From the NCBI RefSeq assembly GCF_988243305.1, contig NZ_OZ547136.1: 64,000 nt of DNA. The stretch is one strand, 5' to 3'. Below the pieces are notes generated by a model. That model ran no database searches. It saw only the letters and a program-made list of their open reading frames with translations, and had not been told where the DNA came from. This document shows positions 36,407-37,635 of the stretch, in pieces (position 1 is the first letter of the stretch; the number at the start of each line of letters is the position of its first letter). Made by a program: the position numbers and the translations under genes.

Positions 36407-37635
36407 AGTAACCTCACTATACACAGATATAAAAGCACTGCAATTCTGGCTATTAATAGCAAAAATAGCAGTCAAATCAATATGAGGTAAAAATTTTTGT
36501 TGATTTAATGGTTAAATAATAACCACAGTGTGTTTTGCTGCTGAAGAAAGACAAAATGAATCTGTGTGTCCCCTCCTTCCCTTCAGAGCACATCCACTAT
36601 TCAAATTTTACACAACCACGTACGAACAAAAAGCATCATCCCGGGTATTGCAGATACCGGTTTCCTGCCGGGATGAATCATAAACAGAACACCGGGAATA
36701 ACGCCTTCAGGAATCCCCCCCTCCTGAAGAAGAATAAAATAAAGAAGACTACAGTTCCTGCACTGAATGCTGAGTACAATATTCTATGGACAGGATGACA
36801 TATTTATAAATAACAAAAACCATTTAATACTGATACATCAATAAAATACTTCCTCCCTGCTGACGCAGATAAAATGCACCATTTTTTCTTCAAATACCTC
36901 TGTATAATCGCCAGCCAATGATGAGAATGGATTAAAATAACACTTCTTCGACAAACACAAAAACAGCCTTCATTTTACATCATCATCCAGTTTCAGTTAA
37001 CCCCGGACGAGCGACAGTGTTTCAGTACAGGAATTAAAAGCCAGCTTTTGCTCAGTAAAAACACACTCAACTAATAATATCTCAGCAGATATTATCCTGA
37101 CCAGGACACCTCACATTACTGAATTCTCTTCCGACAGTATCACTGCACAAATAAAAAAGAACGGGATAAATATTCAGACCGGAAGAATGGTGTCACAAAA
37201 GCATTTAATCATTACGCATGACCAGGAAGGGAAACACTTAACCACATGGTATCAACAGATATCATTACGTGTGCACTCTTATAAAAAACACACAGAAGAA
37301 GTAAGATAATTATAAATGTAAATTTAATATCTCCCACTGACATCTCCCCCACAATACACTGAAAAATACTCACAGCAGTAAACACAGACACACCTGATAA
37401 TCATGCAGCCGATAAATATTTTCCCCTTTACGGAGAAATCAGCCTGCTGTTTAACAATAACGGCGTATTTTCATGGAAGGAGATCACCCAGTAACGGATA
37501 AGTCCTGATCTCCTTCATGTTAATACGCAACAATCCCATCGATTAAAAACAATTTCAGACAGATATTATCTCCGTGAATCCCCCGCCACCTTTCCGGTGC
37601 GCGGGGTTTTGTCTTTTTTCACCGGGAATACATGT

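Follow-up and report, generated by a model that had tools for sequence, protein, structure and literature searches.

A terminator-type hairpin in the 5′ leader of the YeeP/YkfA/YfjP-type island GTPase gene of Escherichia coli

The GTPase leader and its hairpin

We analyzed a 64,000-nt stretch of Escherichia coli DNA (hereafter, the window; NCBI RefSeq assembly GCF_988243305.1, contig NZ_OZ547136.1) that holds a CP4-44-type island at its K-12 position, with yeeA, sbmC, sbcB, and the his operon to the right. The element under study is a hairpin with an adjoining T tract in the 5′ leader of an island GTPase gene. The gene that owns this leader, a full-length YeeP/YkfA/YfjP-type coding sequence (290 aa, MMR_HSR1), occupies 37636-38508 on the plus strand, and its ATG is at 37636, as an earlier first-pass annotation of the same DNA had placed it. 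On its 3′ side follow the small RNA (sRNA) IsrC, agn43/flu, and then a co-oriented array of yeeR, DUF932, antirestriction, yeeS, yeeT, yeeU, and cbtA. On its 5′ side is a 1.16-kb non-coding spacer (36476-37635), whose other flank is the divergent YfjI/DUF3987 gene (34922-36406, minus strand), 1.16 kb from the GTPase gene. In K-12, yeeP is a 5′-truncated pseudogene and the leader is lost. The 3′ end of the spacer contains both the hairpin with its T tract and, farther upstream, an inverted repeat. The first-pass annotation had combined the two into a structured leader that could serve as an attenuator or sRNA terminator controlling entry into the GTPase-flu region. Both structures are present where it had located them.

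The hairpin spans 37581-37606 on the plus strand and consists of a 5′ arm, CCCCGCCACC (37581-37590), a TTTCC loop, and a 3′ arm, GGTG(C)GCGGGG (37596-37606). The stem comprises 10 bp and a single bulged C (37600), and the predicted folding energy of the hairpin is -18.5 kcal/mol. Immediately 3′ of the stem lies the T tract TTTTGTCTTTTTT (37607-37619, plus strand), a T-rich run that reaches almost to the ribosome-binding site and ends 16 nt 5′ of the GTPase ATG. There is no T run on the opposite strand of the hairpin. A GC-rich stem-loop with a U-rich tract 0-2 nt after it on the transcribed strand is the anatomy of an intrinsic terminator, and here it is located inside the 5′ leader of the GTPase gene. 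A consensus scan also flags a terminator-like site at the hairpin, in a shorter register. RNA folding, which the first-pass annotation had proposed as a check, gives z = -4.3 for the whole segment 37440-37640.

Between the T tract and the start codon, the sequence CACCGGGAA (37620-37628, plus strand) contains a weak Shine-Dalgarno (SD)-like GGGAA (37624-28). Two alternative pairings are open to this sequence, one with 37571-78 and the other with the loop and 3′ arm of the hairpin (37591-99), and neither is kept outside close relatives. The longest mechanically called open reading frame (ORF) for the GTPase opens at a GTG (37597) in the 3′ arm of the hairpin, in frame with the ATG at 37636, and a five-codon mini-ORF (ATG at 37632) overlaps the GTPase start; neither of these starts is kept among relatives. 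A search of 35500-39500 against Rfam at E values up to 1 matched only IsrC/IS102 (38612-38815), leaving the leader and the inverted repeat unmatched, and the leaders of K-12 and other related islands (four loci) likewise gave zero matches.

Conservation of the hairpin among related leaders

Of 5426 complete E. coli genomes, 4248 contain the last ~95-115 nt before the ATG, with 9328 occurrences in all and a median of two per genome. Homology among the paralogous islands begins at 37538-37551, as judged from alignment breakpoints. K-12 yfjP and ykfA share the flanks TTGAAAAAATCTTCAGATAKATATCAT ... TTTTCAGAGGAGTRGTG ATG with the window leader. Despite these shared flanks, their stem is entirely different from that of the window (ACGGCAGAACC-TCGC-GGTTCTGCCGT) and is followed by five to six T, the SD sequence, and the ATG. 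The first-pass annotation had suggested a comparison with these two paralogs and had regarded a lack of conservation among paralogous islands as grounds for abandoning its proposal. For the hairpin, the comparison turned out the other way, with the structure kept while the stem sequence was replaced.

We then surveyed relatives more broadly. A scan of one genome per species yielded 80 loci from Escherichia, Citrobacter, Klebsiella, Enterobacter, Salmonella, Yersinia, Serratia, Photorhabdus, Erwinia, Dickeya, and others, and 81 leaders were analyzed. A single hairpin followed by at least five T in the next 8 nt is present in 77 of the 81 leaders, and three more have a hairpin with a weaker T run. 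The order of promoter, hairpin, T tract, and SD sequence is likewise repeated before 77 of 81 GTPase homologs, all in Enterobacterales. Within these leaders, 72 distinct hairpin sequences, at a median pairwise identity of ~0.36, make up roughly a dozen stem families; 70 of the 72 fold at or below -10 kcal/mol. A 40-nt window placed on the hairpin has a median folding energy of -17.2 kcal/mol, compared with -3.3 kcal/mol for the flank. Because G·U pairs (42) exceed A·C mismatches (12) among the hairpins, it is pairing in the plus-strand RNA that appears to be favored.

Covariation was examined separately for each hairpin type. RNAalifold gave no structure when run on a MAFFT alignment of all leaders, in which the two hairpin types are out of register, and anchored extraction with per-type alignments was used in its place. 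For the ykfA type, we used a gap-free alignment of 23 hairpins, with sliding of the 3′ partners and 500 shuffles as controls. In this alignment, 94.5% of cells are paired, compared with 31-57% when the 3′ partners are slid. Double changes occur in 8 of the 12 pairs, and the covariation score was reached by none of the 500 shuffles. For the window subtype, 97% of cells are paired, with double changes in 3 of 10 pairs; for example, C-G/A-U in the inner stem is replaced by A-U/U-A. Since 72 different hairpin sequences show formal covariation, we conclude that the structure is under selection through compensatory changes.

The position of the hairpin is also constrained. The distance from the end of the stem to the ATG is 19-30 nt across leaders, while the gap to the nearest upstream ORF varies from 84 to 1384 nt; this ORF is co-oriented with the GTPase gene in 47 loci and oppositely oriented in 25. 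The hairpin therefore belongs to the GTPase gene and not to the gene upstream. The result for annotation is that the non-coding DNA before these GTPase genes contains an RNA structure under selection that Rfam does not include.

The promoter-like block and interpretations of the leader

To the 5′ side of the hairpin, the leaders share a promoter-like block, which in the window reads TTTCAGACAGATATTATCTCCGTGAA as a DNA unit. It consists of a -35-like hexamer TTAAAA (37543-37548), which is TTGAAA, TTCCAA, or TTCAAA in relatives; a 15-nt spacer, ACAATTTCAGACAGA (37549-37563); a -10 hexamer TATTAT (37564-37569), which is TATCAT in the ykfA/yfjP type; and a nearly invariant TGAA (37575-37578), all on the plus strand. 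We determined per-position conservation in 78 unique leaders aligned on the invariant TATYAT, in which T, A, T, Y, A, and T do not vary. The block from -22 to +14 around this hexamer is nearly invariant and comprises ATT..AA (the -35-like TTnnAA, in which T-21, T-20, A-17, and A-16 are nearly invariant), the 15-nt spacer, TATYAT, and TGAA, the last at positions +11 to +14 relative to the hexamer with 1.4-1.9 bits. The spacer is unusually conserved, with the consensus AtaaTTTCAGAyAkA, and together with the -10 region it forms an imperfect palindrome, TTCA-N3-AGATA-T-TATCT-N3-TGAA. Upstream of -22, these leaders show zero conservation. The full motif occurs once per locus in the window and related loci, always at the GTPase leader; a downstream match of the type found in locus L014 lies inside a coding ORF and was set aside as chance.

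Sigma-70 promoters usually have a spacer of 16-18 nt and a purine start 7 nt downstream of the -10 hexamer. From this geometry, transcription is predicted to start at G37576 or A37577, 7-8 nt past the hexamer, which leaves ~5 nt ahead of the stem. The corresponding unpaired stretch in the ykfA/yfjP type would be 10-17 nt. Shimada et al. (2014; PMC3946193) reported sites bound by the RpoD holoenzyme in genomic systematic evolution of ligands by exponential enrichment (SELEX) in the perR-ykfA and rnlB-yfjP spacers, and the promoter they gave for ykfA and yfjP, TTGAAA-15-TATCAT, is the block found here. This block is the only sequence common to the two K-12 SELEX spacers. A minus-strand promoter in the block and promoters of the sigma-E or sigma-54 type were considered and dropped after inspection only, as were an RfaH ops element in the ykfA stem and IHF and dif/Xer sites.

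The core of the block, AGATATYAT, has five copies in the 64 kb, four of them within 500 nt before the GTPase gene (37074-37095, 37257-37265, 37561-37569). Two form a perfect inverted pair at 37074-37095, ATAATATCT-CAGC-AGATATTAT, and a single copy at 37257-37265 on the plus strand lies inside a promoter-like site, TTAACC-16-TATCAT (37238-37265). The longer CAGATATYAT has three copies in the window, all before the GTPase gene, where 0.22 would be expected. Upstream of the leader in the 80 other loci, the extra AGATATYAT copies are absent, making them lineage-specific. Possible roles for them are as auxiliary operators or as tandem promoter-like sites. We rejected a duplication of the leader within the upstream spacer, as only a 10-11-nt core recurs.

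With a probability of about 0.55, we interpret the hairpin and T tract at 37581-37619 as a Rho-independent terminator in the 5′ leader of the island GTPase gene that gates its transcription. RNA polymerase, starting from the local promoter or reading in from the variable upstream DNA, would transcribe the stem and the U tract. Most complexes would stop at about 37613-37616 and release a short RNA of ~40 nt in the window and ~55 nt in the ykfA/yfjP type. Because there is no room for a promoter between the stem and the ribosome-binding site, every GTPase-encoding transcript must cross this element, and the GTPase would be made only from the read-through fraction. Co-oriented downstream genes without a promoter of their own would be likewise affected. 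Such an element would keep the head of a conserved island module off or low, insulated from upstream cargo, and read-through might be set by a constitutive leak or by a factor, with either being possible. Both the act of termination and the extent of read-through we infer from the architecture of the leader.

As to the role proposed in the first-pass annotation, a terminator-type leader element is upheld, but not a classical attenuator, there being only ~5 nt between the predicted start and the hairpin. The extension of control to a GTPase-flu region goes too far: flu is preceded by the IsrC/IS102 sRNA (38612-38815, between the GTPase gene and agn43; Rfam IS102, 253 bits), itself preceded by a promoter-like site, TTGTCC-17-TAGAAT, at 38580-38608. 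The element type, a promoter-proximal intrinsic terminator, is conventional, and this instance of it is previously undescribed. What makes the leader notable is how deeply it is conserved and that it opens an island module of very wide distribution. A gene array headed by the GTPase is present in about four fifths of complete E. coli genomes, often in multiple copies, and in many other Enterobacterales, and this array includes antirestriction, RadC-like, and CbtA/CbeA genes. How such “cryptic prophage” modules are silenced or switched is poorly understood, and the leader offers a concrete and easily testable control point. It is also a compact natural part, with promoter, terminator, and ribosome-binding site within about 95 nt.

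Several observations weigh against a gating terminator of this kind. The 15-nt spacer is outside the usual sigma-70 range, and outside the range of the scan tool, so that the block would make a poor sigma-70 promoter. The U tract is interrupted (UUUUGUC), and the efficiency of termination may be modest. The promoter block coincides with the end of a co-oriented gene in ~25 related loci, with the hairpin where the terminator of that gene would sit. A promoter with an immediate terminator makes little sense without a mechanism for read-through, and none was identified. The SELEX data represent in vitro binding in the K-12 spacers and not a mapped start, and their resolution does not place RNA polymerase on the block. 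Finally, neither the yfjP nor the ykfA leader has a 3′ end in the Term-seq tables of Adams et al. (2021), in look-ups by gene name and by coordinate alike, and the TRS tables have no entry for these K-12 leaders. A constitutive promoter with a strong terminator should yield an abundant short RNA, and its absence from these tables counts mildly against a strongly active promoter under the laboratory conditions used. The absence is weak evidence, however, since an RNA of 40-55 nt, or one from silenced horizontally acquired islands, may escape detection.

The gene that ends at the block provides the basis for a different explanation, which we consider unlikely. The hairpin could be a boundary insulator or the intrinsic terminator of an upstream gene, the block being no working promoter or else a protein-binding site, and the GTPase would be expressed only by leak-through. 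The ancestral upstream gene would have encoded a 300-380-aa protein with a ribbon-helix-helix-like C-terminus. In line with this, 18+4 sampled loci and many E. coli genomes have a homologous ORF in the same orientation whose stop lies 84-133 nt upstream of the GTPase ATG, in or at the block; one member of this family has a weak RepB/RepA-like match at its C-terminus; homology of the module begins exactly at the promoter block; and the local promoter lacks support from 3′ ends in the Term-seq tables mentioned above. However, the hairpin is intact without a co-directional upstream gene in the window and in at least 25 loci with an oppositely oriented nearest ORF. It keeps a fixed distance to the ATG but not to the upstream gene. 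The block shows the conservation of -35, -10, and start site typical of promoters, and no other sequence is common to the two K-12 spacers bound by the RNA polymerase holoenzyme. A tblastn search of the window spacer also found no remnant of the upstream ribbon-helix-helix-like gene. An insulator role is compatible with the gating terminator that we favor, but it leaves the promoter-like block unexplained.

The upstream 300-380-aa protein belongs to no known family and ends exactly at the block, for example at L002 1864-3015, L010 1315-2367, L024 1499-2416, and L060 1496-2410, and in ~20 other loci. We could assign it to no family beyond the sub-threshold RepB/RepA-like tail, which resembles a ribbon-helix-helix. 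It is absent from the window and is a candidate partner or regulator.

It is improbable that the stem-loop and U-rich tract act instead after transcription, as a 5′ stabilizer, as a landing site for S1 or Hfq, or through an outer helix that masks the SD sequence. The first option draws on the window type, in which the hairpin begins ~5 nt from the predicted 5′ end (about 5 or fewer unpaired nt, as in an ompA-type 5′ stem-loop, if the start is 37576), and on several relatives in which GAAU pairs with the first U residues so that the 5′ end is fully paired. It is not general, however, given the longer unpaired 5′ end of the ykfA/yfjP type. That the T-rich run reaches the SD sequence is in keeping with the second option. 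For the third, minimum-free-energy folds place an outer helix, TCCGTGAA / TTCA-C-CGGG, around the hairpin, and native outer-helix duplexes are more stable (-6.9 kcal/mol) than non-native (-5.6 kcal/mol) or shuffled (-4.1 kcal/mol) ones. But this helix requires an RNA that begins upstream of the predicted start, is missing in the TTTCTGTCTGAG subclade, and shows no clean covariation, and we did not adopt it given this weak support. Each post-transcriptional option fits only part of the leader family, and a GC-rich stem with an immediate U run is expected to terminate transcription regardless of any other role.

A more ambitious proposal, and quite an improbable one, is that the promoter block and the immediate terminator form the cis switch of an undescribed antitermination or derepression circuit for the island module, in which the spacer TTTCAGAyAkATAT would be read by a factor, for example on transfer or under stress, and the terminated 40-55-nt RNA might also regulate like StxS. 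The module that such a circuit would turn on (GTPase ... DUF932, antirestriction, RadC-like, CbeA/CbtA) is the most widespread island module of E. coli.

A version of this idea modeled on known systems appears very improbable. Here, a processive antiterminator would load at the spacer and act on the promoter and immediate terminator, as lambda Q does at PR′-tR′ or Pseudomonas aeruginosa AlpA at PalpB-tB, and/or the short RNA would have a StxS-like regulatory role. In those two systems, the polymerase becomes resistant to terminators through a protein bound between -35 and -10. The architecture is indeed that of PR′-tR′ and PalpB-tB, a presumably always-active promoter with a terminator immediately after it, and the region between -35 and -10, in which the Q and AlpA binding elements sit, is nearly invariant across genera, which is unusual for a promoter. 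As at lambdoid PR′-tR′, a self-active promoter would be followed by an intrinsic terminator with an operon beyond, and a short terminated RNA would be the default product, as described for 6S RNA and StxS (PMC7547250). The four AGATATYAT cores in the 500 nt upstream, with their perfect inverted pair, are arranged as auxiliary operators would be. As in P. aeruginosa, in which a DNA element between -35 and -10 and a promoter-proximal intrinsic terminator gate the downstream genes, the island encodes a Phage_AlpA-domain protein (33705-33911).

The differences are considerable, however. We found no cognate Q-like or AlpA-type antiterminator encoded nearby. The P. aeruginosa AlpA antiterminator (>140 aa) reads DNA with residues 128-142 and has an N-terminal ring at the RNA exit channel. 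The part that forms the ring is absent from the island protein, a winged helix of 68 aa that has a 73-aa AlpA-family regulator and TorI as its best solved relatives and does not match P. aeruginosa AlpA chains at E values up to 10. On the basis of its length and its Xis/TorI-like solved relatives, we rejected this protein as an antiterminator. The GGGACG binding motif and the CACGAT-type pause element of PalpB-tB are absent from the leader. The window type also has no convincing -10-like sigma-dependent pause element, as its GTGAAT lacks the key A at position 2. In the ykfA type, which has CTGAAC/GAACAT at the start, GAACAT has A2 and T6 but matches only three of the six positions. The extra AGATATYAT copies are confined to one lineage. 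The predicted RNA of about 40-55 nt is far shorter than its lambdoid counterpart, the window type would have almost no single-stranded seed, and no short RNA is listed for the K-12 leaders in the Term-seq tables. The element also resides in P4-type islands and not in lambdoid phages.

Premature termination in 5′ untranslated regions of E. coli offers another comparison (Adams et al., 2021). Those cases share a hairpin and U tract between promoter and start codon with the leader studied here, but they have mapped 3′ ends and usually a sensor (a riboswitch, sRNA, or leader peptide), while this leader has no 3′ end in the tables and no room for a sensor. The his and trp attenuators similarly carry a terminator within an operon leader, but the present leader has neither a leader ORF nor an alternative antiterminator helix; the window leader contains no ATG, and we found no conserved alternative pairing in it. 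A switch-type attenuator, based on a leader peptide or a competing helix, is excluded because the ~5 nt (window) or 10-17 nt (ykfA type) before the stem leave no space for one.

The upstream palindrome and the island setting

The inverted repeat upstream of the leader is separate from the hairpin. Its core is a perfect 11-bp repeat, GAAGGAGATCA (37476-37486) and TGATCTCCTTC (37506-37516), with 19 nt between the arms. The core is extended by CATG/CATG past one bulged G, and the outer arms (37463-75 and 37516-28) are 85% complementary (GCGTATT / AATACGC). In this extended form (37463-37528), which contains one bulged G and two T·T mismatches, the element lies 15 nt upstream of the -35-like hexamer. 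The RNA of 37458-37535 folds at -30 kcal/mol with z = -6.7. About 1% of Markov-random versions of the 1.16-kb spacer contain a perfect inverted repeat of 11 bp whose loop is at most 40 nt, and ~0.8 such repeats are expected per random 64 kb. By itself, the repeat is therefore only marginally beyond chance; we regard it as real because the palindrome recurs elsewhere.

That recurrence, and the behavior of the repeat in relatives, led us to separate it from the leader, contrary to the first-pass annotation. It lies upstream of the conserved promoter-like elements and outside the block common to the paralogs. In the 92%-identical paralog L003, three uncompensated substitutions break the inner stem, and the repeat is absent from E. 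albertii, yfjP, and ykfA. When the repeat alone was used as a BLAST query, matches came from 2247 E. coli genomes (3522 places) and from 140 plasmid records (Escherichia, Salmonella, Moellerella). Many of the less similar hits span the palindrome alone, with homology stopping at its edges, so that the same unit with the same boundaries is found in unrelated genomic contexts. Copies at L089 2501-2567, L090 2501-2564, L091 2501-2565, and L092 (pVir68) 3001-3064 lie in contexts that include the 3′ end of a PerC/IbrB operon, a restriction-modification locus, and, on pVir68, a site ~50 nt downstream of cdtC. The pVir68 copy has a near-perfect 23-bp stem (-36 kcal/mol). In the window, no T tract follows the repeat on its 3′ side.

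From these comparisons, the inverted repeat is best described as a decaying copy of a low-copy dispersed palindrome of ~66 nt that is typically intergenic, often 3′ of an operon, and has no conserved role in the leader; annotators should not read it as part of the leader structure. The palindrome could function as a 3′ stem-loop or as a DNA-level site. It resembles REP/BIME-like and MITE-like hairpins in being a discrete, sharply bounded unit found between genes at several unrelated chromosomal and plasmid locations, but its copy number is low (at most five per genome) and it is not in Rfam. To our knowledge, it has no sequence relationship to REP or ERIC. The repeat contains two GATC sites, and control by Dam through them was dropped after inspection only, both sites being lost in L003 and one in pVir68.

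The spacer as a whole (36476-37635) lacks annotated genes and ORFs of >60 aa. Its sequence is AT-rich (GC 0.32-0.44), and the plus strand is skewed toward C over G and A over T. A plus-strand RNA of the spacer would be C-rich and G-poor, the composition favored by Rho. Several minus-strand promoter-like sites for yfjI are located within it. Downstream of the GTPase gene, IsrC has a strong terminator at 38775-38802, and a mechanically called Ag43 ORF (from 38680) overlaps IsrC; the annotated Ag43 start lies farther downstream.

Elsewhere in the window, a 507-aa ORF (27915-29438) upstream of the island AlpA-family gene has group II intron reverse transcriptase motifs, including YADD, and the otherwise identical strain cq9 has an IS66 element near this position instead. 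An 18-bp perfect inverted repeat, TTCATCACCGATATTCAT...ATGAATATCGGTGATGAA (34823-34862), lies between a convergent 200-aa ORF (33998-34600) and yfjI (ending at 34922) and probably serves both as a terminator. Further long perfect inverted repeats, with arms of 11-19 bp, are found at 26304-26344, 26151-26189, 6995-7029, and 62128-62160, and most of these resemble ordinary terminators, with an A run on the 5′ side and a T run on the 3′ side.

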